A DNA stretch of 64,000 bases from a virus (Duplodnaviria; Caudoviricetes), in IMG/VR virus record IMGVR_UViG_3300031555_004294, positions 32,001 to 96,000 of that record. One strand, written 5' to 3'. Shown here piece by piece: positions 6,115 to 48,765 of this stretch. The translations under genes and the position numbers were made by a program. Under the pieces are notes generated by a model, which saw only the letters and a list, made by a program, of their open reading frames with translations, made no database searches and was not told the origin of the DNA. Position 1 is the first letter of the stretch. The number at the start of each line of letters is the position of its first letter.

Positions 6115-6117
6115 TAT

Positions 6118-6666
6118 ATGAACATCATCAAAAAGTTTTTTGGTCATTTAATGACTGTTCATAAACATCGTAAAACAGTCCGTAGACTTTGTTTCCGTTG
6201 TGGATTATATTGGCAAGGAATTACACATGACTTGTCAAAATACTCTCCCACTGAGTTTATTAATGGAGTTAGATTCTTTACTGGGAAAGGATCACCCCAT
6301 CTTGGTGAAAGAGCTAAGTATGGTTATTCAAAAGCATGGCTTCATCATAAAAGTCATAACAAGCATCATGCAGAATATTGGCAAGATATTCTACCAGATG
6401 GAAAGTCTGGACCTATTAGAATGCCAGTAAAATATTTTGCAGAAATGATGTGTGATAGAGTAGCGGCATCTAAAATCTATTTGAAAGATGAGTATACTTG
6501 CGAGTCTCCTTTGAGGTATTATAGAACTCATAGAGATGAAAACCAGTTTAATCTTTCAGATAGAGAAAAATTAGAAGACCTTTTATTAGTGATGGCTTTA
6601 TCTGGAGAAGATATTATGTTTGACCGTTTGAAAAAGATGTGTAAAACCAATCAGAAAGGGAAATAA
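6118..6666 (+). CDS. HD-like DUF5662-type protein
   Basis: HDLSKYSPTEF, AWLHHKSHNKHHAEYW, EMMCDR motifs. Confidence 0.7.
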   Translation: MNIIKKFFGHLMTVHKHRKTVRRLCFRCGLYWQGITHDLSKYSPTEFINGVRFFTGKGSPHLGERAKYGYSKAWLHHKSHNKHHAEYWQDILPDGKSGPIRMPVKYFAEMMCDRVAASKIYLKDEYTCESPLRYYRTHRDENQFNLSDREKLEDLLLVMALSGEDIMFDRLKKMCKTNQKGK

Positions 6667-6668
6667 TT

Positions 6669-7886
6669 ATGATGACTCTAAGTCCTATTATTGTATCGCT
6701 TCTTGATACTGATCTGTACAAGTTCAACATGAATCAGGTCATGTTCCATAAACACACTAACTTGAATGGTAAATATCTATTCAAGTGTAGAAATGAGAAT
6801 ATTGACTTTACTCCTGAAATGGTTAAGGAAATTAACGAACAAATTGACTATTTATGTTCTCTTACTTTTTCAGATGAAGAACTTGATTATCTTGGCTCTT
6901 TAAGATTTATTAAGAGTGACTATGTAGAGTTCCTTAGACTTTGGAGACCTCTCCGTAGATATGTAAATTGTTGGAGGTCTCCTAAGAAACTTGAAAATGG
7001 AAATATTATAGGAGACTTGAATATTACAATTGAAGGTCCACTCTTCTCAGTCATGCAATTTGAAATCTATCTTCTTGAAATTGTTAATGAAACCTATTTC
7101 AGAATGAAGTATGATTATATGCGTCTTATGGATTCTGCAAAAGAAAAACTTGATCATAAGATCGAAGGATTCAAAACAGAAGAATATAATTTCAAGTTTG
7201 CAGAATTTGGTTGTCGTAGAAGACTTTCCAGAGAATGGCAAGATTATGTAGTAGGTGAACTACTTAAAACTGGTAAGTGTGTTGGTACATCAAATGTTTA
7301 TCTTGCTATGAAATATGGTTGTAAGCCTATTGGAACTTATGCTCATGAGTATGTACAGATGTATCAAGGCATTCCTGGTGTTACTCTTGCATATACAAAT
7401 AAAATGGCAATGGAAGAATGGTTTGATGAATATCAAGGTGATAATGGAACTGCATTAACTGATACACTGGGAACTGATTTGTTCCTCATGGATTTCAACA
7501 AGCTTCAAGCTACCTGTTATACTGGGGTAAGACATGATAGTGGCGATCCTATTGAATGGGGTGAAAAGATTATCGCTCATTATATCAAGCTTGGCATTGA
7601 TCCCAAAACAAAGACTTTATTGTTTAGTGATAGTCTTAACTTTGTTAAAGCACAAGACATATATAACCATTTCAGAGGACGTATCAATGTAAGTTTTGGT
7701 ATTGGAACTTATCTCTCCAATGATACAGATGTTGATCCATTAAACATTGTTATCAAACTTCAGTATGTTAATGGACATCCTGTAGCAAAGATCAGTGATA
7801 CACCTGGAAAGGCAATGTGTCAAGATAATAGTTATCTTGCATATTTGAAAAACGCAGTCGATTATAGACTAAAGGAAAAAATTTAA
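6669..7886 (+). CDS. pncB: Nicotinate phosphoribosyltransferase
   Basis: SLLDTDLYKFNM, EFGCRRR, GTSNV, GTYAHE, RHDSGDP, FSDSL, FGIGT, KISDTPGK motifs. Confidence 0.93.
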   Translation: MMTLSPIIVSLLDTDLYKFNMNQVMFHKHTNLNGKYLFKCRNENIDFTPEMVKEINEQIDYLCSLTFSDEELDYLGSLRFIKSDYVEFLRLWRPLRRYVNCWRSPKKLENGNIIGDLNITIEGPLFSVMQFEIYLLEIVNETYFRMKYDYMRLMDSAKEKLDHKIEGFKTEEYNFKFAEFGCRRRLSREWQDYVVGELLKTGKCVGTSNVYLAMKYGCKPIGTYAHEYVQMYQGIPGVTLAYTNKMAMEEWFDEYQGDNGTALTDTLGTDLFLMDFNKLQATCYTGVRHDSGDPIEWGEKIIAHYIKLGIDPKTKTLLFSDSLNFVKAQDIYNHFRGRINVSFGIGTYLSNDTDVDPLNIVIKLQYVNGHPVAKISDTPGKAMCQDNSYLAYLKNAVDYRLKEKI

Positions 7887-7912
7887 AATTTTTATAAAAG
7901 GAGAAACACAAA

Positions 7913-9961
7913 ATGGAATTTAAAAACTTCCTAATCAAATTTCAGGAAAACTTCAAAAATCTTACAAAAGATGAAACTCATCTTTATGAAGTTGAAGTAG
8001 ATAAGGATGTACTCTGGAATCTTTATCTCGACAGTTTCCCTGAAGGAACCAACCCCATTTACAGAGAAAGAAGAGAGTTTGATTGTAGCTGTTGCAGACA
8101 TTTCATCAAGCAGTTTGGTAATGTTGTCGTCATTAAGGACAACATGATCAAGACTATTTGGGAGTTTGATGCATGTAGTACAACCTTCCAGCCTGTTGTA
8201 AACGCTCTTGATGCATTTATCAAGGCTAATGTCATCACAAATGTTTACATCAGCAAGTTTAATAAAATCGGTACTGCATCCAACTTTGAAGATCTTGGAA
8301 ATGGAGAAGTAAAGAAATGGGAACACTTCTTTATTGATCTTCCATCTAAGTTTGTTGACAGATCTAATCGTTCCATTGGTGATCTTCAGGGTGATTTTAG
8401 AGACACTAAGAATGTTTTTAAACGTTCTCTTGACGAAATTACCAAGGAAAGTATCGATACTGTACTTGAACTTATTTCTTCCAACACGCTTTATAGGGGT
8501 GATGAATGGAAGCATGCTCTTACTGATCTCTTAAAGTACAAGAAGCAGTATGAAAAGCTTACTACAGAAGAAGAAAAAAATAACTATGCTTGGGTTATGT
8601 CTTCTAAAGTAGGTGCAGTTATTGGACGTATCCGTAATCATAGTATTGGTACACTTCTTTTAAACATCAGTGAAGATATGGATCTTGATCTTGCTGTTCG
8701 TAAGTATGAACAGATCGTAGCTCCTAGTACTTACAAGAGACCTAAGGCTATCTTCACTCAGAAGATGCTTGAAGATGCAAAGAAGACCATTGAAGAACTC
8801 GGTTACATGGATTCTTTGTCCAGAAGATATGCTACACTTGATGATATTACGGTCAACAATATCCTCTTCTCTAATAAGGATTCTGCTAAGAGAATTCAGG
8901 GAGGACTTGATATCTTTGATCAGATGTCCAAGGAGGTAGCTGTAAACCCTAAGAAGTTCTCTAAGGTTGAGGAAATTACAATTGACAATTTCATCAGCAA
9001 TGTTCTTCCTACAGCAAGAGAACTTGAAGTTCTGTTTGAGAATAAGCATGCTTCTAGCATGGTATCTTTGATTGCACCCAAGGATACGAATAGTAAGACC
9101 ATGTTCAAGTGGAACAATGGATTTAGCTGGGCATATTCTGGTAATATGACTGACAGCACTATGAAGGAAAATGTCAAGGCTGCTGGTGGTGATGTCACTG
9201 GTGATCTCAGATTCTCCATTCAGTGGAACGATACATCCTACAATCCTAATGACTTTGATGCTCATTGCATTGAACCCAGCGGTCTTGAAATCTATTATGG
9301 TAATAAGAGCTATCGTCATCCTTCCTCTGGTATGCTTGACGTAGATATTATCAACCCCATTCAAAATAAAGCTGCTGTAGAAAATATTACTTATGCAAGT
9401 AGAAATAAGATGCCGAAGGGTACTTATCAGTTCTTTGTACACTGCTATAATAACAAGGGTGGTAGAGATGGATTTAGTGCAGAGATTGAATTCGATGGAC
9501 AAATCTATTCTTTCGCTTACAATAAAGAACTTAGAACTGGAGAGAAAGTTTATGTAGCTGATGTTACATGGGACGGTCAGAGCTTTACTATCAAGGAAAA
9601 GCTTCCTTCAAGTACTTCCTCTAAAGAAGTATGGGGACTTAATACCAACCAGTTTATTCCTGTTTCTGTTATGTGTTACTCGCCTAATTACTGGGATGAA
9701 CAGAATGGCATTGGTCATAGACACTATTTCTTCATGCTGAAGGATTGTATTAACCCTGAATCTCCTAATGGATTCTATAATGAATTCCTCAAGCAAGAAC
9801 TTGAAAAGCATAAGAGAGTATTTGAAGCTCTCGGTGGTAAGATGAATGTTGAAGACACCAATGATCAGCTCTCTGGCATTGGATTCTCTTCTACTAAGAG
9901 AAATGAAGTAATCGTAAAGGTTAAGGGAACCACTGAAAGAGTTCTCAAGGTGAAATTCTGA
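7913..9961 (+). CDS. Large conserved phage protein with N-terminal CxCC site and C-terminal YfaP/DUF2135-like domain
   Basis: [10 protein letters not shown]; [11 protein letters not shown]...GMLDVDI...AVENI motif. Confidence 0.6.
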
Positions 9962-9962
9962 T

Positions 9963-10139
9963 ATGGATGAGAATAATAAACTTGATCAGGTCATTGAATT
10001 CTTAAATGAACACATAGCAGAAGTAACTGAGTATGCTAATTCTAAAGAGTATAGTGGCCTAGACCAACATGACTGCCGAATTGCAGCTGAAGCATACGAA
10101 CTTGTCTTGAATTTCGTTCAAGACTTAAAAACCAAGTAA
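9963..10139 (+). CDS. Small hypothetical protein (58 aa, not in ORF track)
   Basis: ATG at 9963 immediately after the previous stop, open to TAA 10139; fills the operon gap. Confidence 0.55.
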   Translation: MDENNKLDQVIEFLNEHIAEVTEYANSKEYSGLDQHDCRIAAEAYELVLNFVQDLKTK

Positions 10140-34219: not shown

Positions 34220-34846
34220 ATGAAGAAATATAAATTTGAAAGTACAATGCATTCACAAAGAATGTTTCTTGGAATTATTTGTGGTTTATTACCTATTTGC
34301 TGTGTTTTATTTGGTTTATTAGGTACAGGTACAAATCCTACTGGCTGGTGGAATTCAATATCTGCTACATATTATGCAAACTCTAAAATGTGGCTAATTG
34401 GTTCTCTAACACTTGCATCGTTCTTTTTCTTTACTTATAAAGGATATGACTTAGGTGACCGAGTATTTACAACAATTAGTGGCATTGCATCAATTTGTAT
34501 TGTAATTTTCCCATGTAATATAAATTCTGTTACTGATACACACGTTGGTCTCTTAATGTTGCCAATTAATGTTTCTCATATCATACATTGTATTGCAGCA
34601 TCAGTATTATTTATTGGATTTGCGTTGATGATACTGATACAGTTTACAAAAGGTAATAACAAGAAACGAAACATCTTATATATAGTTTGTGGAAGTATAA
34701 TTGCAGTTTTTATGCTTAACCAAATCCTATCAGTAGTTTTAAATTATCCTGGTTACTGGACTATGATTAACGAGTTTTTTATGCTTGAAGCTTTTGCAGT
34801 TGCTTGGATTGTAAAGGGTGCGTCTATACAAAAAATAGAAGAATAA
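34220..34846 (+). CDS. Multi-pass membrane protein (DUF998-like)
   Basis: About 6 hydrophobic helices; SISATYY motif. Confidence 0.7.
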   Translation: MKKYKFESTMHSQRMFLGIICGLLPICCVLFGLLGTGTNPTGWWNSISATYYANSKMWLIGSLTLASFFFFTYKGYDLGDRVFTTISGIASICIVIFPCNINSVTDTHVGLLMLPINVSHIIHCIAASVLFIGFALMILIQFTKGNNKKRNILYIVCGSIIAVFMLNQILSVVLNYPGYWTMINEFFMLEAFAVAWIVKGASIQKIEE

Positions 34847-34851
34847 AATTT

Positions 34852-34896
34852 AAAGAGGAAAGTGATTAAGTATCACTTTCCTCTTGTTTTTTTTTT
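34852..34896. terminator. Bidirectional terminator
   Basis: AAGAGGAAAGTGAT / ATCACTTTCCTCTT stem plus T tract between convergent genes. Confidence 0.75.
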
Positions 34897-34897
34897 G

Positions 34898-35802
34898 TTA
34901 AGACTCCCAGATTTCTTTCATCTTACGCTTCATCTCAATGATGAGCTTATTTGTGTATAGCATCGAATAACTATCTGTAGTCATACGTGATACTATAGAC
35001 ATGGGTGAGTAGATTGCTAAAATATTCTCATCAGGATATCTTTCAGAGAAAGGCTCTTCGCCTTTAGGTAATACGTCACTAACAATTGTCTTAACAGCAG
35101 TACCATAAACAACCTTATCGCCTGTCTTCAATCTGTCTCTATGTTTTACATAGAATTCGATAATGATACCTTCAAAGTCAATACCCTTAATCTTCTCGTC
35201 TTTGATCTGATCAACTCTTGGGAAAATTGTAGATTTGTTATTGGTATTCTCTACTATCTTCTTTCTAGTATTAACTTCTTTAGCATAGCTATCGATTAGC
35301 TTTTGAATGGACTCAGAACAAATTTCTTTAGGTACATTGTAGTAAACCTTAATGTCGATTATCTCACCAGAATACTTAGCTTTGATTGAGTCTTTACCCA
35401 TATCTTCTACAAACTCAGCAAAATCATCACCCATGCTATCAAGAATTCTATTTGCATCAGCATCTTCAAAAGTATGCTCGAAGGAAATTAAACTTTCACT
35501 AGTTTTAACATGTTGATGTTTTTTAACCATTTGTAGAATGTTTGTATTAGGTGCTAGCTTCACAGTAGTTGCCATAGTTACATAAGACGACATATTTTCC
35601 GAAACCTCATTTGTAATAACAGATGAGTCCTCTAATGTATAGTCACCCTGTGCTATAGCTACTTTTGCTAGTAAACCTTGAGAGAATGTAACTTTATCAG
35701 TTTTATTACCTAAGAAGAAATCACTATTCTTTGCTAGAATGTCATTCTTCTTAAATTTTTGACCTTCTTCGAAAAGTAGGTCTTTTTTGTTGGAAATGTA
35801 AA
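34898..35802 (-). CDS. rpoB: RNA polymerase beta subunit, exon 2
   Basis: Open frame from 35802: (F)YISNKK...GLLAKVAIAQGDYTLEDSSVI, GDKVVYGTAVKTIVSDVLP, YSPMSIVSRM (equivalent to beta GYNFEDA, GDK..GRHGNKG, NPLGVPSRM). Confidence 0.9.
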
Positions 35803-35936
35803 CATTAATATTTGCATAGAGACATTAATTCTATGACTGCTAGGCTTTTAAACCTAGATTAGACTATATCTTCTTGTACTTTCCTATTATACAATCATTT
35901 GACTGCAATATAGTCGTTGAACTTATCTTAAAAAAT
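35803..35936 (-). ncRNA. Group I intron 3' catalytic half (P6a 3' strand, R, P7.1, P3', S, P9, omega-G)
   Basis: ATTTTTTAAGATAAGTTCAACGACTATA...AAGATATAGTCTAATCTAGGTTTAAAAGCCTAG...AATG|. Confidence 0.88.
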
Positions 35937-35954
35937 GTAATTTTGAAAAATTTG

Positions 35955-35970
35955 AATATATATTCTAAAT
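35955..35970 (+). promoter_or_regulatory. Early-type promoter motif driving the intron-embedded operon
   Basis: AATATATATTCTAAAT, near-identical to AATATATATTCTAAGT at 23285; lies 19 nt inside the P6a arm. Confidence 0.6.
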
Positions 35971-36137
35971 GTAGATAAAAGGTGCTACGAATTAGATAGT
36001 AATTCTATCCTTTAACAGAATTGGCAAATGCAGATTTGAACTCTGTGTAAAGTCCCTGTTATAGCAGTAGTTAAATGGAATTTGAGAAACAGCCTTTAAA
36101 AATTTTTATACTTTTACTAAAAGGAGTTAACTACAAA

Positions 36138-37019
36138 ATGGAAAAAACTATCTACAACGGAATGGAATTTAATTACTATCAGATCGCTGAAATCCTGCTT
36201 GGTAATATGGAAGGTATTGATACATCTAACTACACTGATCCTAAAATTTCTTATCAAGAAATGCAAAAAATTAGATTGCGACTGGTTGAAGATAAGAAAA
36301 TTAAAGATAGTTGGTATGAAAATTTTGGTTTAAAACAGATTAACGGAAAATGGATGTCTGTTAGAAATATTAAACCTTGTCCTATTTCAGAAGGAAATTG
36401 CGATAAAGGAATTCAAATTCTGTTAGGTCTTAAAAAAGGGTTAGACGTATCTATTTACGCAAAACCTGAGTTTAGCGGTTTACAGATGCAGGAAATTAGA
36501 TTAGGTCTTGAAAAAGGGTTAGACGTATCTATTTACGCAAAACCTGAATATAGTCACCATCAGATGGACAAAATTCTATTTGGTCTTGAAAGAGGGTTAG
36601 ATGTGTCTATTTACGCAAAACCTGAGTTTGACAGTTGCCAAATGAATCAAATCATATGTTTTCTTGTAAGAGGATTTGACATAAATAAATATCTTGATGC
36701 AGGAATTACTAGTTCAGATATGTTATATGAAGCTGGACGTGGTCTTAATGAAGGTATAGACTTATTCGATTATGCTAAGCAGTTAAATGATTCAACTCAG
36801 CTTTATGAGATTTTAATGGGTATTCGAAAAGGAATAGATGTATCTGTATATGCTAAACCTGAGTTTAGCACCGATCAGATGTGTCAAATCAGAATAGGCC
36901 TTGAAAGGGGATTAGACGTATCTGCATATGCAAAACCTGAACTTAAAGCTAGTGTGATGAAACAGATCAGATTCTGTCTTCAAAAAGGACTAGATATGAC
37001 CGTACATCTTAAAACTTAA
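36138..37019 (+). CDS. Repeat protein (26-aa GLEKGLDVSIYAKPEF repeats), intron-embedded gene 1
   Basis: At least 5 well-conserved plus degenerate copies of Q.I..GL.KGLDVS.YAKPE; ATG 36138 after AAAGGAG. Confidence 0.8.
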   Translation: MEKTIYNGMEFNYYQIAEILLGNMEGIDTSNYTDPKISYQEMQKIRLRLVEDKKIKDSWYENFGLKQINGKWMSVRNIKPCPISEGNCDKGIQILLGLKKGLDVSIYAKPEFSGLQMQEIRLGLEKGLDVSIYAKPEYSHHQMDKILFGLERGLDVSIYAKPEFDSCQMNQIICFLVRGFDINKYLDAGITSSDMLYEAGRGLNEGIDLFDYAKQLNDSTQLYEILMGIRKGIDVSVYAKPEFSTDQMCQIRIGLERGLDVSAYAKPELKASVMKQIRFCLQKGLDMTVHLKT

Positions 37020-37050
37020 TTTTACTTGAACAAAAGGAGAACTAATAAAA

Positions 37051-37482
37051 ATGAATGTAACAACTTCAATCATTAACGAACACGGAAACCAACTCAAATT
37101 CACATCTATTCCTCGAAGATACACATCAGGAAATACAGAATATTGGAAGGAATATGATAAGAACGGTAATCTTATCTATGAAAGATTTTCCAATGACGTT
37201 GTAAGGACTCATCTCTATGATGCACAGGGTAAGTTTATCCTTACATACGATCCTTCAGAAATGGGAGCTATAGTAGCTATCCGTCTTTTCTATGATGAGT
37301 ATCGTAGTGTAATGGCAGAACTTGCTTTTGCATATGGAAGTACTCATACTATCGAATGGACTGATATAGCTCAGAGAAGAGCATTCCAGATCGGTATCAA
37401 TGGATATACTTTCATCTTTGATGAGAGAGATGTAGCTAAAGAAAAAACCTTCCAAGATTTTGTAAAAACAAAGGAGAACTAA
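37051..37482 (+). CDS. Hypothetical protein, paralog of 37713-38150 (intron-embedded)
   Basis: WKEYDKNGNLIYERFS / IGINGYTFIFDERD. Confidence 0.75.
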   Translation: MNVTTSIINEHGNQLKFTSIPRRYTSGNTEYWKEYDKNGNLIYERFSNDVVRTHLYDAQGKFILTYDPSEMGAIVAIRLFYDEYRSVMAELAFAYGSTHTIEWTDIAQRRAFQIGINGYTFIFDERDVAKEKTFQDFVKTKEN

Positions 37483-37486
37483 CAAA

Positions 37487-37681
37487 ATGAAACTTCGTGA
37501 TGTACTCAATGTTATTAGTGGTGGCACTAATATCAGAATCTCTGTCAACTGCAATACTATCTTTTCTGGTCGAATGGCCGATGTAAAGGTAACTGATTGG
37601 ACCAATACTGTCGGTCCTTATCTGGATAATGAAGTCTACAGACTCAATACTTTCAATGGTTACATAACTATCGCTTGCTAA
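37487..37681 (+). CDS. Small hypothetical protein (intron-embedded)
   Basis: SD AAAGGAG, 64 aa. Confidence 0.65.
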   Translation: MKLRDVLNVISGGTNIRISVNCNTIFSGRMADVKVTDWTNTVGPYLDNEVYRLNTFNGYITIAC

Positions 37682-37712
37682 AAATCACACAAGCAAAGGA
37701 GAATTAAACAAA

Positions 37713-38150
37713 ATGCTTGAATCTAAAACTATCATCGAAACTGAAAATGGCAATCGTCTTGAGTTTACGAATTTCACTCCTGACCAAATTAAATCCTATG
37801 GTAAGATCTGGAGGGAATATGATACCAATGGTAATCTTATTCATGAAAGATTTTCTACTGGAGTTATGAAAAACTATCTTTATGATGAGGATAATAAACT
37901 CATCGAAGAATATGATCCTATGGTAAAAGGAGCCATCAATGAAATTCGCATTTTCTATGACGAAGGTCATAAAATCAAGGCAGAACTTACTTTTGCCTTT
38001 GGTGGTACTACAATCATCGATTGGACTGATGTAACTCAAAGAGGACTCTATGAAATTGGTATCAACGCATATACTTTTATCTTTGATGAAAGAGATGCCG
38101 TTAGAGAAAGATTTTTCCAAGATTTTATAGTAACAAAGGAGACAAAATAA
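37713..38150 (+). CDS. Hypothetical protein, paralog of 37051-37482 (intron-embedded)
   Basis: WREYDTNGNLIHERFS / IGINAYTFIFDERD. Confidence 0.75.
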   Translation: MLESKTIIETENGNRLEFTNFTPDQIKSYGKIWREYDTNGNLIHERFSTGVMKNYLYDEDNKLIEEYDPMVKGAINEIRIFYDEGHKIKAELTFAFGGTTIIDWTDVTQRGLYEIGINAYTFIFDERDAVRERFFQDFIVTKETK

Positions 38151-38151
38151 A

Positions 38152-38595
38152 ATGTCATCTACTAATGCAGAATTCGAAATTGGAGAATTTGTAATAACAA
38201 CAGAAAAAATCCAAAATCACCATGGTTCTCTTGAAAAAGACATGGTTGTAGAAATAGTCGGTATAAACAAATCAAATCATACATACGATGTCTGTTTTGA
38301 TAGTGACGCTGGAAAGATTCTTGGAGTTCTTCGTGAAGTTAGTCATACAAGTCTCAAGAGATCTCCTATTCTTAACAGTTCTTATAGATTCACAGAATGT
38401 ACTAGAACTGCAGTAGAAAAAATAGAGCAAGCTATTTCCGTTATTTACGATCAAGATGCAAATGAAGAATGTATTAATGATCTTAAAAATGTCATTGAAC
38501 TTCTTTTTAAGGCTAGACACAATGTTCGTTTTACATTAACACCTGAGATGATCAAGAAATATGAAACACTCAACAAAGGAGAAATAACAAAATGA
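38152..38595 (+). CDS. Hypothetical protein, possible SH3-like N-terminus (intron-embedded)
   Basis: FEIGEFV...VEIVG...YDV pattern; C-terminal helix resembles 38592-38825. Confidence 0.65.
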   Translation: MSSTNAEFEIGEFVITTEKIQNHHGSLEKDMVVEIVGINKSNHTYDVCFDSDAGKILGVLREVSHTSLKRSPILNSSYRFTECTRTAVEKIEQAISVIYDQDANEECINDLKNVIELLFKARHNVRFTLTPEMIKKYETLNKGEITK

Positions 38596-38825
38596 AAATC
38601 AAAACAACAAATATCAATCAAGACAGCAATAAAATTGAAATCGATAACAACACCCAAAAATACATGGGTCATATCACATCTGCTATTGACAAGGCAGAAC
38701 AAGCTCTTTCGAGTATAACTTATACAAGTCATTCAGATGTAAACGAAGAGCCTATCAAGCTTATCAATAAAGCCATCGAACTTCTTGAAAAAGCTCAGGA
38801 TAGTACCATCTACAAACCTGTATAA
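38592..38825 (+). CDS. Small hypothetical protein (intron-embedded)
   Basis: AIDKAEQALS...AIELLEKA resembles AVEKIEQAIS...VIELLFKA of the previous ORF. Confidence 0.65.
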   Translation: MKIKTTNINQDSNKIEIDNNTQKYMGHITSAIDKAEQALSSITYTSHSDVNEEPIKLINKAIELLEKAQDSTIYKPV

Positions 38826-38842
38826 AGGAGATACCACAACAT

Positions 38843-39061
38843 ATGGAAACTTTTATAATTTGCTTTAAACTTGACAATGCTTATAGGATTTTAGATCAAG
38901 TTGCCATTGTCTATGCAAGAAATCAAGACCATGCAATAAGCCTTCTTAATGCAATGTATGAGAAGTGTCAGTATGAATCAATAAAGTCCATTTACAGTGT
39001 TAGCAAATTAAGTGAAGATGGTAATCCTACTATTTTCACATATACCCCAGCTTTATATTAA
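38843..39061 (+). CDS. Small hypothetical protein (intron-embedded)
   Basis: SD AAAGGAG; 72 aa. Confidence 0.6.
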   Translation: METFIICFKLDNAYRILDQVAIVYARNQDHAISLLNAMYEKCQYESIKSIYSVSKLSEDGNPTIFTYTPALY

Positions 39062-39072
39062 GGAGAACGACT

Positions 39073-39813
39073 ATGGTTACAAAATACAATGTCATTAATT
39101 TCTTTGAAAAAAGAAAAGGTGACCCAACTGTTCCTCATACAATAGATGAGAAACATGAAAACATCATCTACAAAGATACAGGTAAAGTCCTTGCTACAAT
39201 CGATGAGTACATGGCTGCTATGAAAAAAGTACTTCATTGTGACTTTGAACTCATCTATGATGAACATCCTTCCTGTTTCTCAGTCATCCGTTGTAAGGAA
39301 TGTGGAACTGTAATCTTTGAACGTTATGATGAAGATTATGATCCAAATCTTTGCTGTCCTACTTGTGGGGGCTATAAAACTTACTTTGATTTCTGGACGA
39401 AGGAAGAAATTGATAGTGATGAGGAAAAACAAAAAGCTATCAAAAACTACGAAGAAATGCAACGTGAGTTGGATGAGTCCTATGCAAGACGACAGAAAAG
39501 AGGAGGTCTTTATGATTGGGAGATTTGGAAAAAGAGAATTGAGTTCAAGAAAACCCTTTGGAATATCTCTCTTGAATGTGATAATCTTTTCTATAGCAAA
39601 CCAAAACTTAAAGGTCTAAAACTCATTATCAAAATGAGTAAAAGAGATCCTGAATATGACGACATGTTTGTCTGGAAGAAGTCTACAAGAATTCCTCTAT
39701 CTTGGTATGCTTTCTACATACATTGTATTCTCCCATACTCTAAAACATGTCCAGAAGAATTACGCAAGTACCATTTCTGGCAGAAGAAACCTAAAGATCA
39801 GGAGGAAGGATAA
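39073..39813 (+). CDS. Zinc-ribbon-containing hypothetical protein (intron-embedded)
   Basis: CKECG and CPTCG pairs. Confidence 0.7.
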   Translation: MVTKYNVINFFEKRKGDPTVPHTIDEKHENIIYKDTGKVLATIDEYMAAMKKVLHCDFELIYDEHPSCFSVIRCKECGTVIFERYDEDYDPNLCCPTCGGYKTYFDFWTKEEIDSDEEKQKAIKNYEEMQRELDESYARRQKRGGLYDWEIWKKRIEFKKTLWNISLECDNLFYSKPKLKGLKLIIKMSKRDPEYDDMFVWKKSTRIPLSWYAFYIHCILPYSKTCPEELRKYHFWQKKPKDQEEG

Positions 39814-39816
39814 TTT

Positions 39817-40275
39817 ATGCACAACATCACTACAAGATACAAAGAGATTAAAGTTTGGTCTGCAAGTAAATTTAATCTCATCATCGCTATCGTTTTCATC
39901 GTTCTTACTGTACTGCTTGAAGCAGGAATTTTACACTGTATATTTACAGATAAAATTGGAAGTGCTGTTTTATTACAGTTTATGGTATCACCAATAACAA
40001 TTGTAGTTGCATCATGTGGAATTGGTACTTATAAACGAAGAAAAGAATTTACATTATACTTCAGCCAAATTGATGACGTTATTGATATCTCAAGACTTAA
40101 ATCTGAATATCATCTTTGCATGATTGATGGGTATGGTGTATTATTTATCAAAAACGATGATATACCTTCATATTCTGATTGGACTACTTTTGGTAGCTAT
40201 AATTCTACTTATAGAATTGAAGAAAAGTTTTTTAAAAATAGCACAATTTCTTTCATTACTAAAAAGGAGGACTAG
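39817..40275 (+). CDS. Membrane protein with two TM helices (intron-embedded)
   Basis: LIIAIVFIVLTVLLEAGIL and AVLLQFMVSPITIVVASC hydrophobic segments. Confidence 0.65.
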   Translation: MHNITTRYKEIKVWSASKFNLIIAIVFIVLTVLLEAGILHCIFTDKIGSAVLLQFMVSPITIVVASCGIGTYKRRKEFTLYFSQIDDVIDISRLKSEYHLCMIDGYGVLFIKNDDIPSYSDWTTFGSYNSTYRIEEKFFKNSTISFITKKED

Positions 40276-40279
40276 AATA

Positions 40280-40450
40280 ATGAAAACCTATAGTGTAAGT
40301 ATACTTCATAAAACTGGTAGGGTTGTAAGACCTTATATCTTCAACGTTGAAGCATCAAATGAAAAAGATGCAGAGAATGAAGTCATGAGTAAAGTTAAAG
40401 CTCTTAATCTTAAAGGATCTTTAAGCGTTGATTTCGTTGAAGAAATTTAA
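40280..40450 (+). CDS. Small hypothetical protein (intron-embedded)
   Basis: ATG 40280 after AAAGGAGG; MKTYSVSI...VEASNEKDAE. Confidence 0.65.
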   Translation: MKTYSVSILHKTGRVVRPYIFNVEASNEKDAENEVMSKVKALNLKGSLSVDFVEEI

Positions 40451-40473
40451 CAAACAGAAAGGAAAATATCGCC

Positions 40474-40734
40474 ATGATGACTAAAACCCAATTTGCAAAA
40501 AAGATCGTTGAAGGATTTTGCAAAGATGTTGACTACAGAACTATTACTGATTGGTCTCCTTATATCTGTATGAGTAGTAGACTCGCAGTTGCATTAGAAT
40601 TCCTTGGATTGATTCCGAAGGATTCTTATACAGAATCTAGAGGAGGAATTGAAATGGTTTACTATGACAAGGAGAATAATGAGTCTGCAATTCTTTCAAC
40701 CAGAGAACTTCTTTCGTTGCTTCCTGATGAATAA
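40474..40734 (+). CDS. Small hypothetical protein (intron-embedded)
   Basis: 86-aa ORF with SD AAAGGA. Confidence 0.65.
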   Translation: MMTKTQFAKKIVEGFCKDVDYRTITDWSPYICMSSRLAVALEFLGLIPKDSYTESRGGIEMVYYDKENNESAILSTRELLSLLPDE

Positions 40735-40748
40735 TTAAAGTTCAAGAA

Positions 40749-41190
40749 AGTGTTAAGGGATCACTTTAAATATCCCTTCTCTAATTTATAAAACTAGAAA
40801 GGAAATATGTTAACCATGAAACGTGAATATATTGACAACGAAGAAATCATGAGTAACGATACTATTGAAATGGAGCATATCGTCACTGCAAAAAGGATTG
40901 AAAATAATATTGTGCTTTTTCAAAACGTAATTGCTAGTTTTTCAGGTGTAAAACTTACCGATGGTAAAGGCCCAAATGATCCAGATGAAGATGCATTTTG
41001 TGAGTTCAAATACAAAGATGATAAATTTTACTATAGAGATAGTCTCACAAAAGAGTTTGAAGAAGTTACATATGCTTTTTGGACGAATACTCTCTTATAC
41101 TATGTTTCTGAAGGACATAGTATTCATTATTTCAATGAAGACTAATTCATCTACATACAGTGTTAAGGGATCACTATAAATGTCCCTTCT
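40749..41190 (+). repeat. 32-nt direct repeat (2 mismatches) containing a hairpin, flanking ORF 40807-41145
   Basis: AGTGTTAAGGGATCACT(T/A)TAAAT(A/G)TCCCTTCT at 40749-40780 and 41159-41190. Confidence 0.85.
40807..41145 (+). CDS. Hypothetical acidic protein (last intron-embedded gene)
   Basis: 112-aa ORF with SD AAAGGA. Confidence 0.65.
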   Translation: MLTMKREYIDNEEIMSNDTIEMEHIVTAKRIENNIVLFQNVIASFSGVKLTDGKGPNDPDEDAFCEFKYKDDKFYYRDSLTKEFEEVTYAFWTNTLLYYVSEGHSIHYFNED

Positions 41191-41197
41191 TTTTTTA
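41165..41197 (+). terminator. Terminator of the intron-embedded operon
   Basis: AAGGGA...TCCCTT hairpin plus T tract, ending just before the P6a arm. Confidence 0.7.
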
Positions 41198-41199
41198 TA

Positions 41200-41286
41200 A
41201 TTTTTTAAGATAAGCTGCTGATTATACAAAATTTTGTATGTTCCAGCAATTAAGGAAGTTTATCAAGGTGATCAATAATAAATTTC
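41200..41286 (-). ncRNA. Group I intron 5' half (P1/IGS, P3, P4, P5, P6a 5' strand)
   Basis: |GAAATTTATTATTGATCACC...AATTGCTGGAACATACAAAATTTTGTATAATCAGCAGCTTATCTTAAAAAAT. Confidence 0.88.
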
Positions 41287-44200
41287 AACCACCATTAGAG
41301 TTTTTACTAATACGTTCAGATATATCAATTACATCTGTCGTACCATCTTTGTAACGAATTATTACTAACTCGTTCTTTGTATCTACCTTTTCTACTACAC
41401 CATCTTGTTCTGCAATAGATACAAAGTCAGAGGATAAAGTATAAGGTAGAGTTCTTTCTATACCAGAGCCATATAAAGGTCTGGATTGTTTTTCAGTGGG
41501 AACTGAGTGTTTCGCTTGTTGCGTCTGCATTCCAATTCTCGGAGGATCCGCATGAAGTGAGGTATAGCAAGACAATAGTTCACCAGCTGTTAGCATATTA
41601 GTTGCTGCTAAGTCTTGAACGTTAGTATTTGTATCGATGAAACCAAAATTGTTAGTTACTTTAGGATTATAACTGAGCTGACGAGTTACGCCAACCTTAT
41701 TACTATCAGGTGAACTTATTCCAAGTAGACCAACCATACTTTGGTCGTAAGATCTCATTTGAGGTGTAAAGGCATCATCTAAATTAGTACCTCCGATACC
41801 CTTATAAGTTGTTGATCCAAGTCTTTCAATTTCAAGCACAGGACTAAGTGTCGAATATGCTTCAACAATAGGACTTTCAACCAACTTCTTAATTACAGCA
41901 TCAGGACTGTGTAATGAAATCTTTCTATCAGTATAACCTGACTTATAAGCATCTTTATATTCCCTAACAGCTTCAGATAACACATCATACAATGTTGCAT
42001 TAACAGTTTCTATACTACGTAGACGATAGTTTTTCATATCATTTACAGGTACATAACTGTTATCAGACAATAAAGTATTACAATGTAACAAAACTCCTAA
42101 AAGGTCATTAGGAAGTTTCATGTAATCTAAAATTTCTTTAGTCTTAGGGTCTAAAAGGAAGTTCAAAGTATTTTGGAAACCTTTAGCTAAGTTTCTCTTA
42201 CCATAACGTAAATCAAAATACTCGATGTAAATACCTTTTTCATTCATAGCTGCAAATTCAGTTTCCTTCAAGAAAGGAATGTCATTCAATCCATTCATGA
42301 GTAAACTGTTTCTTAATGGAGTAGACTTATAGTTCAGATAACCATCAGCAAATCTTATAGATGACCATAATGAAACATCGTCATCATCTAATTGCTTCTT
42401 TTTTTCTGAGAACTCGTATTCTATTCCATATCTAAGCATTACATTTTCTAAACCAAAATAGAAACCTGTAAGAATAATTAACGGAATCATAGTTCCAGTT
42501 ACTTTAGTTCTTACATACATGAACTTAGAAGAAACTTTTTGATTTAGCAGCTTCTTATAAAGTTCTGTCTCTTCATGTTGTTTAAAAATACTTAGGACTA
42601 GATTGAAAATTGAAGTATAAGTTGTACTAGCTTGAAGTTTCAAAGCTTCATTCAAGTTAGAATTGTAGGAATGAATTAAACCATCTTCTACGTTGATAGT
42701 ATAAATGATACCATTTACTTTGTTAACTCCTAGCAAGTACTCTCCTTCTGGAATTGAATCATCAATACTTCTATCTAAGAATTCTGAAATCTCAGCATTT
42801 ACTTTATCTCGGTTAAAACATAACATAACGTTTCTGTTATAGTCAAACGAGAGCATATATCTAGAAACTTCGTCATACTCCATTAGAGTTGAATATTTAG
42901 AGTTAACTTGGACGCAATTTCCTAACTTTACAGAAATCTTTCCTTTATGACTAGGTGCATCTTTCAAAATAAAATTCTTCAATTTGTCAGAGTTAGATGA
43001 AAGTTTGGAATTAAATCTCCAGAAAAACATCTTACCCTTGTCAGTAGAAATTGAAACTTCGTTTGGCTTATTTTTAGTAATTGGTAGCTTCATTAACTGT
43101 TTACCAATACTAACTTTGTGATCATTAAGATACATGAACGAATTATCATAAATGATAGGCATCTCGATGTTAACGATATGTCTATTACCCCAACCATCTT
43201 CGTAATTGACCTTAATGAGTTCTTTCTTGTTAATTTCATCTGAGATATCTTCTCTTGAGAGGTCAGTTATATAAATAGGACATTCTGGATCATTATTAAA
43301 CGCAGAAAGGACTTTAATCAAGTCTTTATCTTTTTGATTCTTAACGTAGTTTCTATCTAATTCTTTAAGAGTACAAGTTTTTACTTCCTCATTCAGTGTG
43401 TTAATGTTTATCGTTTCTGTATTAATAGAATGAACTTCATGGTCATGCAAAATGTTATCAATATTGAGTGGCTTGTTACTCACTTTAATATTGACATCAA
43501 CTTTATTTTGCTTTTCCTTAAGTCGTTCTAACTTATTTTCAGGAACTGTAGTCTGATTATTTTTCAAATTGACGAGATAATTCAAAAATCTCTCATCATT
43601 ATTAAGTTCATCTTCTAGTTCATCAACATTGTTAAAGGAAGTTGCTTTATTATCAATGGTTTTTTCAATTCTATCTAGAAGTTCTAAATCATCCGTGTTT
43701 AAAGCAATTTTGTCTGTCAGTTTTAGTCCTTTTACAATCTTATTTTTAATGGGTTTTGCTATATCAGCTTTAACCTGTTTTGATTGTAAATTCTTAATTT
43801 TTTCTGAAGATTGTTTATTTGTTACAGATAAAACTTTACTACTGGATTGAACTATTTGATTATCAGAATTCTGAATTTCTGCTTCTTCTTCCTTATCCAA
43901 CTCTATTCCATTAGAAATTTTATACAAGATGTTTGAAAGTTTCTTGAATTTAGCTAATGAAAATTTTGGATCAGAAAAGTCTACTAAAAACATTCTCGTA
44001 TTGTTTTTATCAGAAAATACGAACTTGTATTTTTTAAAGAACTCGTAATCAAAAGTTCCCTGTTTAAGCATGAAATACAAGATATTTTCAAAACTAAATA
44101 TACGTCCAGTAGTAATTAGCTCTTTAGGAATTACTTGAATGAAAACTTCAGAATAACTATTAGTTTTACCTAAAATTTCTTTTAAAAATGGTATGAATGG

Positions 44201-44617
44201 TTTTAATTTACTTTCAAAACTTTTATAAGATTTATACGTCTCTTCAAATACTTTATAATATCCATAGGTATCAAAATAAGTATTGTATCCTCCATATAAA
44301 TCTAATTTGATTCGCTTAAAAGTAATATTTGGACTTTTAACATCCATTTCTTTGTACTTTACATCTTGTAAAGTATCTACTTTTCTACCCCTACAAGAAG
44401 CTAATTTTTCTGTTTTATAAGGATAGAAGTAACCTTTTACAAATTGTTTGATAAACAGATTGGAGTTAATGATGTCATAAACATCTGATGAAGATGTATT
44501 CAACGAAAATATTAATCGACCTTTTTGTTTATTAGTATTTTCATCATTACTTAGATAGAGGTTATAATTTTTATAAAGATACAAATTTTTATCTAAATCG
44601 TAGTAATTAACCCTCAT
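41287..44617 (-). CDS. rpoB: RNA polymerase beta subunit, exon 1 (spliced product predicted 1411 aa; likely virion RNAP)
   Basis: RSYDQSMVGLLGISSPDSNKVGVTRQL, HADPPRIGMQTQQAKHSVP (beta DANRALMGSNMQRQAVP equivalent); ends at KNSNGG at the splice site. Confidence 0.9.
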
Positions 44618-44648
44618 ATAAGCTTTTCTCCTCCTTTCACTTTTTAGT

Positions 44649-44660
44649 TAGTATTTTGTT
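44649..44660 (-). promoter_or_regulatory. AR9-type late promoter motif upstream of RNAP beta
   Basis: AACA-AAATAC-TA 32 nt before the ATG; SD AAAGGAGG in between. Confidence 0.55.
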
Positions 44661-45117
44661 TGTATAACATAATCTATATCAGATCATATAATTATTTGGT
44701 AGTAATTTTTATTTTTTATAAATTTTTAATTCTATTAGATTTTTAAAAATCTAATAGAATTTTTTATTTAATTTATATTAAAAATTTTATAATTTATAAA
44801 AACCCCCTCTAAATCTCCCCCATAAGGAAAAATTAGGAAATTTTGTAGCTGTAATTTTATGTTACGATGAACTAGATTTTTAAATTTTTAAAAATACGAG
44901 TAATAATTCATTACTAAAACTAGGTATATACTAAATTAGGAAAAACAACATTTTATCGTTTAAAATTTAATCCAATTTTTAAGTATATATTTTTGTTTTA
45001 GAAATAGTATTATGTGAGGTATGAAATAGTATCTTCTTCCTATTTCTTATTTTCTCATAGTATTATTTTGTACAAAATAATACTCAAAAAAAATTATTAA
45101 AAGGAGGACTAACAAAC

Positions 45118-46764: not shown

Positions 46765-46841
46765 TGGGGTGTAGCCAAGTGGCCTAAGGCACGAGACTTT
46801 GACTCTCGCATTCGAATGTTCAAATCATTCCACCCCAGCCA
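46765..46841 (+). tRNA. tRNA-Gln(TTG)
   Basis: Cloverleaf, CGAGA-CTTTGAC-TCTCG, encoded CCA. Confidence 0.92.
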
Positions 46842-47055
46842 ACGGTATATTTGTTAGAAGCATCGACAAGGATATGAGTTGTTGGAGTACTATGAAGAGT
46901 AAATGCGAGATTATCGCAGTTAGCCACCTAAGCAATGCGTGCATGTAATGGATATTAGTTTCAAATATTGAGTTCTCCGCCAATTCCAGAGTATGACTGA
47001 CCTTCAACAGAAAACTGTAAAACAAAGAGGGAAATAAGACATATGAAAGAGGTTT

Positions 47056-47610
47056 ATGAAAATGAGCAAATCAATGCTATTTAATTGGGCATTCAAGCGA
47101 ATTTTAGGGTTAAGAGATGTTGGTGTATTCTTTAAGGTAATGAAGGAGCGCAAAGAAATTAAAACACAAGTTAATCTTAAAGGAGCCATAAGTTCTCCTA
47201 ATCATCTTAGCGAAATCATTGTTGGTCATGATGAACAGATTGATAAATGGATTGAGCCTATGGCTGCTGGAACTGAAAGTTGCCCTTATTGGGATTGTAC
47301 AAGACTGTTCTACGGCAAGGAGGCTAACTTTGACTGGGGCGAAAAGAATATGGAATATTGGCTTGGTATGAGACAAACAGTTCTAGCTCCTATCATCCCT
47401 ATTCCGATTTGTGCTTATGAGGAAGTCTATATTCTTGGTGAATCGGATAAGGCTTTTAGAGATTGCATGAAGAAGTATGGTAAAGCTCGTGCTTTCCATG
47501 ATCACGCTGAAGAGTTTGGTGCAAAGAAGATAATTGATAAAACAAATGTCTACTTTATGCAATGTGACATTTCTTATATGAAAGACCCTGTGTGGTCTAC
47601 TTGTGAGTGA
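47056..47610 (+). CDS. Hypothetical protein inside the tRNA cluster
   Basis: 184-aa ORF, SD GAGG. Confidence 0.6.
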   Translation: MKMSKSMLFNWAFKRILGLRDVGVFFKVMKERKEIKTQVNLKGAISSPNHLSEIIVGHDEQIDKWIEPMAAGTESCPYWDCTRLFYGKEANFDWGEKNMEYWLGMRQTVLAPIIPIPICAYEEVYILGESDKAFRDCMKKYGKARAFHDHAEEFGAKKIIDKTNVYFMQCDISYMKDPVWSTCE

Positions 47611-47746
47611 TGTAGTCGCTATACAAATGACTATCTTTTTGTGAAATTATATTTCACACAAGTGAGCCTCTGTTGTGAACAGACTCCAAGGCTACGGCGA
47701 TTGGCCTCTCGAAAGAGTTAAAAATCGCCATTTATTTCAAATAATT

Positions 47747-47837
47747 GGAGAGATACCCAAGAGGTCGAAGGGGGCGGTCTACTAAACCGCTAGGGCATGT
47801 AAATGTTGCAAGAGTTCAAATCTCTTTCTCTCCGCCA
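47747..47837 (+). tRNA. tRNA-Ser(ACT), unusual A34 anticodon
   Basis: GGAGAGA/TCTCTCC acceptor, G discriminator, long variable arm, GCGGT-CTACTAA-ACCGC. Confidence 0.85.
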
Positions 47838-47888
47838 AATATTTATTAAAGTTCTCAGTAGTTTTAACCTGTTGGGAACTTTATCTAT

Positions 47889-47963
47889 GCTGGTGTGGCT
47901 CAATGGCAGAGCAGCTGATTTGTAATCAGCAGGTTGATGGTTCGAATCCGTTCACCAGCTCCA
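47889..47963 (+). tRNA. tRNA-Thr(TGT)
   Basis: GCTGA-TTTGTAA-TCAGC, CCA. Confidence 0.93.
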
Positions 47964-47966
47964 TTT

Positions 47967-48041
47967 CGGGATGTAGCGTATTGGTTACGCACTAGTTTTG
48001 GGAACTAGATCAAGTAGGTTCGATTCCTATCATTCCGACCA
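47967..48041 (+). tRNA. tRNA-Pro(TGG)
   Basis: CTAGT-TTTGGGA-ACTAG, CCA. Confidence 0.9.
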
Positions 48042-48129
48042 GAAATATTGATTAAAGTCTTGATATTTTAAATTACTAGACTTTAAATTTTTAAAAATCT
48101 GAGTAATAAATAATTATTCAGATTTTTAT

Positions 48130-48205
48130 TCCTCCTTAGCTCAGTCGGCAGAGCACCTGACTGTTAATCAGGGTGTCGCTGGTTCAAGCCCAGCAGGGGG
48201 AGCCA
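48130..48205 (+). tRNA. tRNA-Asn(GTT)
   Basis: CCTGA-CTGTTAA-TCAGG, CCA. Confidence 0.93.
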
Positions 48206-48247
48206 TATTAAAGTCTTGATAAATTAAATCATCAAGACTTTACATTT

Positions 48248-48323
48248 GCAGTAGTAACTCAATTGGTAGAGTGCTAGCCTTCCAAGCTGGATGTCGCGAG
48301 TTCGAGCCTCGTCTACTGCTCCA
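48248..48323 (+). tRNA. tRNA-Gly(TCC)
   Basis: CTAGC-CTTCCAA-GCTGG, CCA. Confidence 0.93.
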
Positions 48324-48467
48324 ACAAAAAATTTAAATCAAGTTTTAAATACATATTTTAAACTTGAAAAAAAAGGAAACGTATTAAAGTAAATTTTAAA
48401 TACATATTCTTATTCTGTAAAAAGAAAATGAATTACATGACAAATGTTAACACTTTCCTTTACATAT

Positions 48468-48554
48468 GGGGGTATGGCGGAACAGGTAGACGCAAGGGAC
48501 TTAAAATCCCTCGGTAGAGATACTGTGAGGATTCGAATTCCTCTACCCCCACCA
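48468..48554 (+). tRNA. tRNA-Leu(TAA)
   Basis: AGGGA-CTTAAAA-TCCCT, long variable arm, CCA. Confidence 0.93.
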
Positions 48555-48607
48555 CTCGTTTAGGTAATTCTATCCTATAATAGAATTACCTAAACATTTT
48601 TATTTAT

Positions 48608-48684
48608 GGGACATTAGCTCAGTTGGTCAGAGCATTCGGCTCATAACCGAACGGTCCAAGGTTCGAGACCTTGATGTCCCACCA
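48608..48684 (+). tRNA. tRNA-Ile2/Met(CAT), Ile2-like body
   Basis: TTCGG-CTCATAA-CCGAA; body resembles Firmicute lysidine tRNA-Ile2. Confidence 0.88.
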
Positions 48685-48689
48685 TATAT

Positions 48690-48765
48690 GATCCATTAGC
48701 TCAGATGGCAGAGCACATGACTTTTAATCATGGTGTCCGGAGTTCGACTCTCCGATGGATCACCA
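48690..48765 (+). tRNA. tRNA-Lys(TTT)
   Basis: CATGA-CTTTTAA-TCATG, CCA. Confidence 0.93.

Follow-up and report, generated by a model that had tools for sequence, protein, structure and literature searches.

A perfect 15-bp inverted repeat around an antisense gene cargo probably forms the P6 helix of a cis-spliced group I intron in a jumbo phage RNA polymerase gene

In the 64,000-nt window analyzed here (positions 32,001 to 96,000 of the 157-kb IMG/VR virus record IMGVR_UViG_3300031555_004294), two minus-strand open reading frames (ORFs), 44617-41285 (1,110 residues) and 35593-34898 (231 residues), flank a block of antisense genes that is bounded by a 15-bp inverted repeat. What is the role of this repeat, and does it act within one RNA or between two? 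The first-pass annotation had proposed that the arms extend the P6/P6a stem of a group I intron and had left cis- or trans-splicing open. The proposal was borne out in its first part: the arms form both strands of P6/P6a in a genuine group I intron. For the second part, we consider it probable that this intron of 5,484 nt is spliced in cis from one continuous precursor.

The sequences CTTATCTTAAAAAAT (35922-35936) and ATTTTTTAAGATAAG (41200-41214) are exact reverse complements at 15 of 15 positions, as had been stated before. Taken alone, the repeat is weak evidence, because perfect 15-mer inverted repeats are not rare in the window, which is 69% A+T. Within a distance of up to 10 kb the window holds 15 perfect inverted 15-mer pairs, whereas Markov-1 shuffles gave about 4 on average and 11 at most. 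The other perfect 15-mer repeats lie in coding sequence without adjoining intron motifs; as candidates for further P6 clamps they were rejected and attributed to chance, since none adjoins Q or R. What makes the repeat under study significant is its register, as the arms lie immediately beside Q and R, at zero offset. Read on the minus strand, the 5' arm (41214-41200) begins directly after the last base of Q, AATCAGCAG (41223-41215), and the 3' arm (35936-35922) stops directly before the first base of R, TTCAACGACTAT (35921-35910), in agreement with the placement given in the first-pass annotation. With Q and R fixed, the chance of a perfect 15-bp complement without offset between them is about 6e-9 at the base composition of the window.

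The elements of the ribozyme core, which is split by the cargo, are as follows (all on the minus strand).

41215..41286, minus strand: 5' half of the ribozyme (from sequence, the minimum free energy (MFE) fold of the joined halves and alignment to complete paralogous introns)
41273-41267, minus strand: P1 guide GATCACC, 5' half; base-pairs with GGTGGTT at the end of the exon (41293-41287), placing U.G at the splice site
41259-41254, minus strand: P3 ACTTCC, 5' half
41249-41243, minus strand: P4 TTGCTGG, 5' half
41240-41224, minus strand: P5 hairpin, 5' half
41223-41215, minus strand: Q/P4' AATCAGCAG, 5' half
41200..41214, minus strand: 5' strand of P6, CUUAUCUUAAAAAAU in the RNA
35922..35936, minus strand: 3' strand of P6, AUUUUUUAAGAUAAG in the RNA
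35803..35921, minus strand: 3' half of the ribozyme (from a partial Rfam match, sequence, fold and alignments)
35921-35910, minus strand: R/P7 TTCAACGACTAT, 3' half
35907-35890, minus strand: P7.1-like hairpin, 3' half
35884-35878, minus strand: P3' GGAAAGT, 3' half
35872-35861, minus strand: S/P7' AAGATATAGTCT, 3' half
35857-35840, minus strand: P9 hairpin, 3' half
35835-35815, minus strand: P9.1 hairpin, 3' half
35803, minus strand: omega-G, the last base of the intron

The pairings of a group I core are present in the right order, with P4 (P/Q) formed by TTGCTGG...CAGCAG (41249-41215) and P7 (R/S) by TTCAACGACTAT/AAGATATAGTCT. When joined without the cargo, the halves fold (MFE) into P1, P4/P5, the 15-bp P6, P7 with the P7.1-like hairpin, P9 and P9.1; a P3 pseudoknot of ACTTCC with GGAAAGT is possible with one bulge. 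When the complete 5,484-nt intron is folded (MFE), all 15 of 15 arm positions are paired, and the duplex amounts to -13.1 kcal/mol. The insert thus lies between both strands of P6/P6a, as in td-like introns, with zero offset to Q and R. The U.G pair of P1 at the 5' splice site and the terminal G of the intron are those of group I splice sites. Both halves are collinear with complete small introns of the same genome, which score 55-57 bits against the Rfam model RF00028.

Comparison with homologues revealed that the two minus-strand ORFs are pieces of one gene. Judged from these homologues, the host gene is that of the virion RNA polymerase beta-N subunit of an AR9-like jumbo phage (homologue of AR9 g189). 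Its parts and signals are:

44649..44660, minus strand: AR9-type late promoter motif AACA-N6-TA, 43 nt upstream of the exon 1 ATG (a low-information motif, suggestive only)
41287..44617, minus strand: exon 1 of beta-N, ending ...KNSNGG (from the ORF list, tblastn to AR9 and BpSp, and alignment to the uninterrupted genes of LPJP1 and phiR1-37)
34898..35802, minus strand: exon 2, whose first 69 codons (35800-35594) contain no in-frame ATG, GTG or TTG
34853..34885, both strands: two-way terminator hairpin, which ends the host gene and a converging plus-strand gene

Extended by 77 codons 5' of its ATG, the exon 2 ORF matches AR9, PBS1, BpSp and staphylococcal jumbo phages over 98-100% of its length. 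The 69 codons before the ATG are conserved in AR9 and in a relative of the window phage, IMGVR_UViG_3300029305_004950 (L008; 86% overall). Since these codons lack a start and are nevertheless conserved, exon 2 must be joined to exon 1 for translation. At the 5' splice site, an in-frame TGA (41287-41285) lies across the exon-intron boundary. In Listeria phage LPJP1 and Yersinia phage phiR1-37, where the gene is uninterrupted, exactly one residue stands between ...NSNGG and YISNKK, and the splice sites are fixed by this single codon: the 5' site lies between 41287 and 41286, after a U able to pair with the G of the guide GATCACC, and the 3' site between 35803 and 35802, after the omega-G. The intron thus spans 41286 to 35803, with a loop of 5,263 nt between the arms. 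Five distant metagenome homologues (31-40% identity, from one metagenome scan) are contiguous and all intron-less at the splice point; they helped to fix the junction and gave no covariation of the stem. The AR9 orthologue g189 is annotated as joined from six pieces, and its splice junctions were inferred by tblastn. At the identical codon AR9 has an ordinary intron of ~300 nt (76.3 bits against RF00028), and BpSp has one of 1.6 kb. A megablast search of the 9.9-kb region against the phage collection gave no match.

Three metatranscriptome runs (with small word shares, 0.06-0.10) and one DNA run were compared with window positions 34800-44700, using contigs from Logan; stretches left uncovered were given no weight. 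In two RNA runs of one bovine study (X19 and X20), one contig each runs directly from 35802 into 41287, leaving out exactly 5,484 nt. In X20 this contig has a length of 1,519 nt, with 914 and 604 nt on either side of the joint. The joint agrees to the base with the splice sites from the protein alignment. In the DNA run (X1) the whole cargo was covered, without the 35802-41287 joint. The RNA lineage is 86-91% identical to the window and thereby closer to it than the intron-bearing L008 and a further intron-bearing lineage, L037. By 18 variant sites, the X20 lineage is neither L008 nor L037 nor L038, the last being a Logan contig of 1,834 nt. Contigs with the 5' half of the intron, the arm, the terminator and homologues of the cargo were also found in X19 and X20, and among the long proteins of a large protein collection there was no uninterrupted homologue above 61% identity. 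On account of this closeness, of the intron and cargo contigs in the same runs and of the missing uninterrupted homologue, the sequence comparisons favor real splicing over an intron-less allele in the RNA lineage. At window positions 36063-36110, stretches of 32-43 nt match unrelated contigs in all three RNA runs, at a depth of up to 543. These contigs diverge from the window on both flanks, and the matches, which may reflect a short shared motif or chance, were set aside as RNA evidence.

If the stem serves splicing, its pairing should be kept where its sequence changes; covariation or conservation at homologous loci had been named in the first-pass annotation as the check to be made. L008 carries the same intron with a different cargo of 1.96 kb, in exons that are ~82% identical. 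There (site B), the stem consists of 14 Watson-Crick pairs and 2 G.U pairs, and pair 14 is U-A where the window has A-U. This change may equally be read as a concerted shortening of both arms by one base. The third lineage, L037, has a 3' arm of the L008 type. From the 3' arm through P7', the window, L008 and L037 are 100% identical, though their exons differ by 18-20%. Compensatory changes among the three are also found in P9 (G-C to A-U) and P9.1 (C-G to U-A), so that the check turned up such changes in P6, P9 and P9.1. Exact-pattern scans of viral contigs with the 3' core and with both arm junctions yielded only the relative that was already known (L008).

The comparison was extended to introns with other cargo. 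Ten cargo introns from five phage lineages were counted: the window intron and nine others, namely one near 33.6 kb of the same genome (G000), L008 site A, L023, L024, L029, two in BpSp, and those of PALS_2 and AR9 g190. L008 site B, as the orthologue of the window intron, is an extra eleventh row.

Window intron: stem of 15 perfect bp, loop of 5,263 nt
L008 site A: stem of 15 perfect bp, loop of 1,308 nt
L008 site B: stem of 14 perfect bp, loop of 1,960 nt
Same genome, near 33.6 kb: stem of 13 perfect bp, loop of 433 nt
L024: stem of 13 perfect bp, loop of 1,155 nt
L023: stem of 11 perfect bp, loop of 214 nt
PALS_2: stem of 11 perfect bp, loop of 926 nt
BpSp (gp247 cassette): stem of 11 perfect bp, loop of 409 nt
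BpSp (second intron): stem of 10 perfect bp, loop of 434 nt
AR9 g190 intron: stem of 10 perfect bp, loop of ~0.7 kb
L029: stem of 8 perfect bp, loop of 184 nt

Every one of these 8-15-bp stems is perfect, each has its own sequence, and all stand in the Q/R register. In cargo-free introns (n = 11) P6 has 4-8 bp, at -4.7 to -6.6 kcal/mol. The compensatory changes in the orthologue, the differing and yet perfect stems of the paralogues and the short stems of cargo-free introns together indicate that P6 pairing is maintained by selection, and more strongly where the loop is loaded. The earlier view that the perfection of the stem reflects selection for splicing is thus upheld as far as the pairing is concerned. 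With 15 bp, the window stem is at the top of the range and is not unique to the largest loop. The claim that a long perfect stem is needed to bridge 5 kb found no support in this form, as the stem is of no special length for such a cargo: in a relative, a 1.3-kb loop is closed by 15 bp as well, and loops of 0.2-1.9 kb are closed by 10-14 bp.

Some of these introns deserve a description of their own. The third cargo intron of the window phage (G000:C1:33500-34175, minus strand) lies outside the window. In this intron Q is followed by TCATTTATAAAAA, and TTTTTATAAATGA stands directly before R, giving 13 perfect bp around a 433-nt loop; the loop holds one antisense ORF of 94 residues of membrane type, a AATATATATT block that resembles a promoter, and a hairpin flanked by A/T runs on either side. 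The beta-N gene of L008 contains two cargo introns (6020-7572 and 7823-10001), with a 252-nt exon between them. The upstream one, which is not present in the window, carries one antisense ORF of 397 residues with odd repeat-type Pfam matches (Myb-like) and shares the terminator hairpin with the window cargo. The BpSp intron at the site of the window intron contains two antisense ORFs in two different loops: gp247 in L6a, closed by the 11-bp stem, and gp246 after R, in a P7.1-like loop. In L029 (17813-18035; G001:C1 ~173.8-174.0 kb), an 8-bp P6 of CTAAAAAA/TTTTTTAG encloses an insert of 184 nt with a promoter-like AT block and a sense-oriented hairpin plus T-run, without an ORF. A sense-direction terminator within an intron is puzzling.

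The loop of the window intron is filled by an antisense transcription unit:

35954..35966, plus strand: AR9-type early (virion RNA polymerase) promoter GAATATATATTCT, directed into the cargo, 17 nt inside the 3' arm
36138..41145, plus strand: cargo of 11 ORFs, antisense to the intron
41165..41199, plus strand: cargo terminator, a hairpin AAGGGA...TCCCTT followed by a T-run, with no U-run on the minus strand and hence one-way

The promoter GAATATATATTCT closely matches the early promoter consensus of AR9, AAATATATATTAT-N6-G, which is used by the virion polymerase (PMC5312081). The aligned block of L008 reads GAATATATATTAT-N6-G. The terminator hairpin recurs at ~40749-40780 and in L008 (blastn, alignment). 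The unit from promoter to terminator exactly fills the loop, with the arms just outside, and both its ends, the terminator hairpin and the promoter block, recur in other cargo introns despite differing stems. A scan for sigma-70 promoters (41 hits, 49 expected from shuffles) was discarded as irrelevant for a phage with its own polymerases. Two cargo ORFs (37051-37482 and 37713-38150) are paralogues with 53% identity, and the first cargo ORF has an internal repeat. Ten cargo ORFs compared with Pfam and PHROGs gave no credible family and no HNH, GIY-YIG, LAGLIDADG or other nuclease, so that the homing endonuclease of td-like introns has no recognizable counterpart among them. For the 246-residue ORF, tblastn found no match in phages.

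How might a gene interrupted in this way be expressed? Early in infection, the injected virion polymerase would transcribe the cargo from the plus strand. In late infection, the host gene would be transcribed from the minus strand as a single precursor that runs through the cargo. The emerging 3' arm would then pair with the 5' arm (15 bp, ~-13 kcal/mol), bringing P3-P4-P5 beside P7-P3'-P9, and the folded ribozyme would ligate the exons in cis to give ...NSNGG-F-YISNKK.... A continuous precursor is favored because no minus-strand terminator was found in the cargo, a late motif precedes exon 1, the halves are collinear, and tandem and two-cassette introns exist. In the window the halves stand 5.3 kb apart, and in all ten cargo introns both halves are collinear on the same strand; dispersed or rearranged halves, the mark of trans-splicing, were seen neither in the window intron nor in the nine others. 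Independent transcription of the 3' half had been suggested earlier from a near-miss late motif (AACA-N7-TA, 36048-36060). The motif carries little information, its exact form AACA-N6-T[AG] occurring about once per kb in the window, and nothing that was found points to a separate transcript. On the minus strand of the cargo there is one exact late motif (window, ~0.8 per kb), which lies 4.8 kb from the 3' half.

Several observations weigh against cis-splicing from an intact group I core. RF00028 matches with 18.3 bits (gathering cut-off 50) at 35873-35842, covering model positions 220-251 only; at the gathering threshold Rfam reports no intron in the window, and a permissive scan finds the 3' tip only, because the 5.3-kb insert splits the model. 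No P8 was recognized between P3' and J8/7, where the window (35873-35890) has only ACAAG after GGAAAGT; all four aligned paralogues have a P8, of 5-6 bp. L008 and L037 share this deletion, and the orthologous intron of AR9 has a weak P8 at best. A P8-less group I core that still yields ligated exons would be unusual. The junction RNA comes from a relative and a single study, not from the window phage, and its contigs are without strand and end information. The same junction would be expected from an allele that has no intron, and L038 (74-81% identical) lacks one at the site of the window intron; this contig is evidently DNA, because its other introns are kept. Finally, two features could uncouple the halves. 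The core of the early promoter, GAATATATATTC (35954-35965), is a perfect palindrome 17 nt from the 3' arm, where a separate 3' RNA might start leftward, and in the paralogous intron near 33.6 kb a hairpin with T-runs on both sides lies just after the 5' arm.

The last two features would suit natural trans-splicing, in which a 5' RNA (exon 1, P1-P5, 5' arm) and a 3' RNA (3' arm, P7-P9, exon 2) are joined by the 15-bp duplex. The 3' RNA might begin at the leftward side of the palindromic promoter or at a non-consensus late promoter, as AR9 late promoters with non-standard spacing, like that of the near-miss, do exist (PMC5312081). The long and perfect stem would fit as well; in the H1/H2 assay, two RNAs obtained by splitting the T4 td intron in this loop splice in trans in vitro (PMC1920258), and trans-spliced group I introns occur naturally in organelles (PMC2731911). 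Trans-splicing of td requires 55 C or chaperones, however (PMC1920258), and loops of just 0.2-1.3 kb have closing stems of equal length. The early motif read leftward, toward the 3' half, deviates from the AR9 consensus at three positions, and one mismatch is enough to disable the AR9 virion polymerase (PMC5312081). In the 4.8 kb upstream of the 3' half no exact late motif was found, nor was a minus-strand terminator after the 5' arm, and the cargo terminator is one-way. Moreover, the tandem cargo introns of L008 and the two-cassette intron of BpSp would each need three separate RNAs. With the collinear halves of all ten cargo introns, this makes trans-splicing unlikely.

The repeat might also matter mainly at the DNA level, as terminal repeats of a mobile cassette, as a site of recombination or inversion, or as a by-product of the terminator T-run and an A-rich region upstream of the promoter. 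The distal 5' arms are A-rich and run into the A-tract of the cargo terminator, and the 3' arm is T-rich; the cassette ends are common to different introns. Cargo is sense-oriented in AR9 and PALS_2 and antisense in the window, as inversion between the arms would yield, and three independent metagenome contigs break at 35931-35939. Yet the arms differ between cassettes that share their inner ends, which is the opposite of transposon ends, and the non-homopolymer parts (CGTAA/TTACG, TGTAAA/TTTACA, TCATTTAT/ATAAATGA) are perfectly complementary as well. The arms stand in the exact Q/R register where P6 must be, and cargo-free introns carry a shorter helix at the same place. We therefore regard a primary role in DNA as quite improbable. 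Even less credence is due to a dead intron whose flanking ORFs are translated separately as split beta fragments, with the repeat as a relic. Such a split has precedent, as phiKZ-like and AR9-like phages have beta and beta' divided over separate genes (PMC5312081 and a preprint), and an ORF of 231 residues from the ATG at 35593 is reported by gene callers; the missing P8 would also fit. Against this stand the 69 conserved start-less codons before that ATG, the identity of the core from arm to P7' in three lineages with exons at ~80-82%, the compensatory changes, and the exact ligated junction in RNA libraries. Removal of the intron in cis thus remains the reading that we prefer.

As a member of the td-type P6a introns, the element can be compared with known systems. 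T4 td is likewise an IA-type phage intron with a coding insert in a P6a-closed loop (PMC3073962), and this loop can be cut to give two RNAs that reassemble and splice in vitro (PMC1920258). The td insert is one sense-strand I-TevI homing endonuclease gene of ~0.7 kb that overlaps the core, whereas the 5.26-kb loop of the window holds 11 antisense ORFs, none recognizable as a nuclease. P6 of the window is one continuous 15-bp helix right after Q, while the bipartite H1/H2 split of td is artificial. In AR9, the orthologous gene g189 has five group I introns, one at the identical codon; the latter differs from the window intron in having no cargo and a P6a of 8 bp with a 3-nt loop. Within another intron of this late gene lies the early gene g190 with its own promoter (PMC5312081), in a P6a loop that, like that of the window, is closed by a perfect stem, in this case of 10 bp (ACTCTCGTTA/TAACGAGAGT). 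However, g190 is a single HNH nuclease gene in sense orientation, and the window cargo is an antisense operon of 11 ORFs with its own terminator. Antisense genes are found in the capsid intron of mycobacteriophage LittleE, which is still cis-spliced efficiently (PMC3706429), and in the cis-spliced Didymium S956-2 (PMC3679873), in both cases as a single homing endonuclease gene and not as a multi-gene non-nuclease operon.

In loop size and in its multi-gene antisense operon the element is far outside the range of the phage and bacterial introns that we found described. Nearest in scale is the ND5-717 intron of hexacoral mitochondria, in which a peripheral loop with many ordinary genes is removed exactly (18-19 kb; PMC6545197). 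There, the genes lie in P8, on the same strand and in a circular organelle genome, whereas the window cargo lies in P6, antisense, in a phage; in corallimorpharians, ND5-717 is removed by back-splicing of a short permuted precursor (PMC6545197). In Isoetes cox1i1305 and placozoan cox1, two ribozyme halves are reassembled by base pairing as well (PMC2731911), but these halves are far apart, rearranged and separately transcribed, unlike the collinear same-strand halves of the window.

A P6a helix that closes an ORF-bearing loop is textbook knowledge for phage group I introns. What sets this case apart is the scale, a 5.3-kb loop with 11 antisense genes. Across ten cargo introns, a loaded loop always goes with a closing helix that is longer and remains perfect. 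This provides a testable rule for how much clamp a ribozyme needs to fold across kilobases of unrelated RNA, and it bears on the design of split or cargo-carrying ribozymes. AR9-like phages appear to use intron loops as safe slots that place early accessory genes inside essential late genes. Trans-splicing, if true, would be the first natural case of its kind among group I introns of viruses or of any bacterial system.

The comparison also flags published annotations in which exon pieces are listed as separate genes. In the BpSp genome (L002, KT895374; 5394-7000), these are gp250, gp248 and gp245. Of the introns kept in L038, a small complete one corresponds in position to window 34985, and another, of which the tail is present, to 41537; from this contig, intron positions in the beta-N gene turn over quickly. 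The three metagenome contigs that break near the 3' arm (L030, L033 and L034, from independent metagenomes) show no difference from the window across exon 2 and the 3' half and end at window positions 35931, 35939 and 35934, in or at the arm, which points to co-existing strains whose cargo differs, beginning exactly at the stem. Elsewhere in the window, a cluster of eight tRNA genes is located on the plus strand at 46765-48762.

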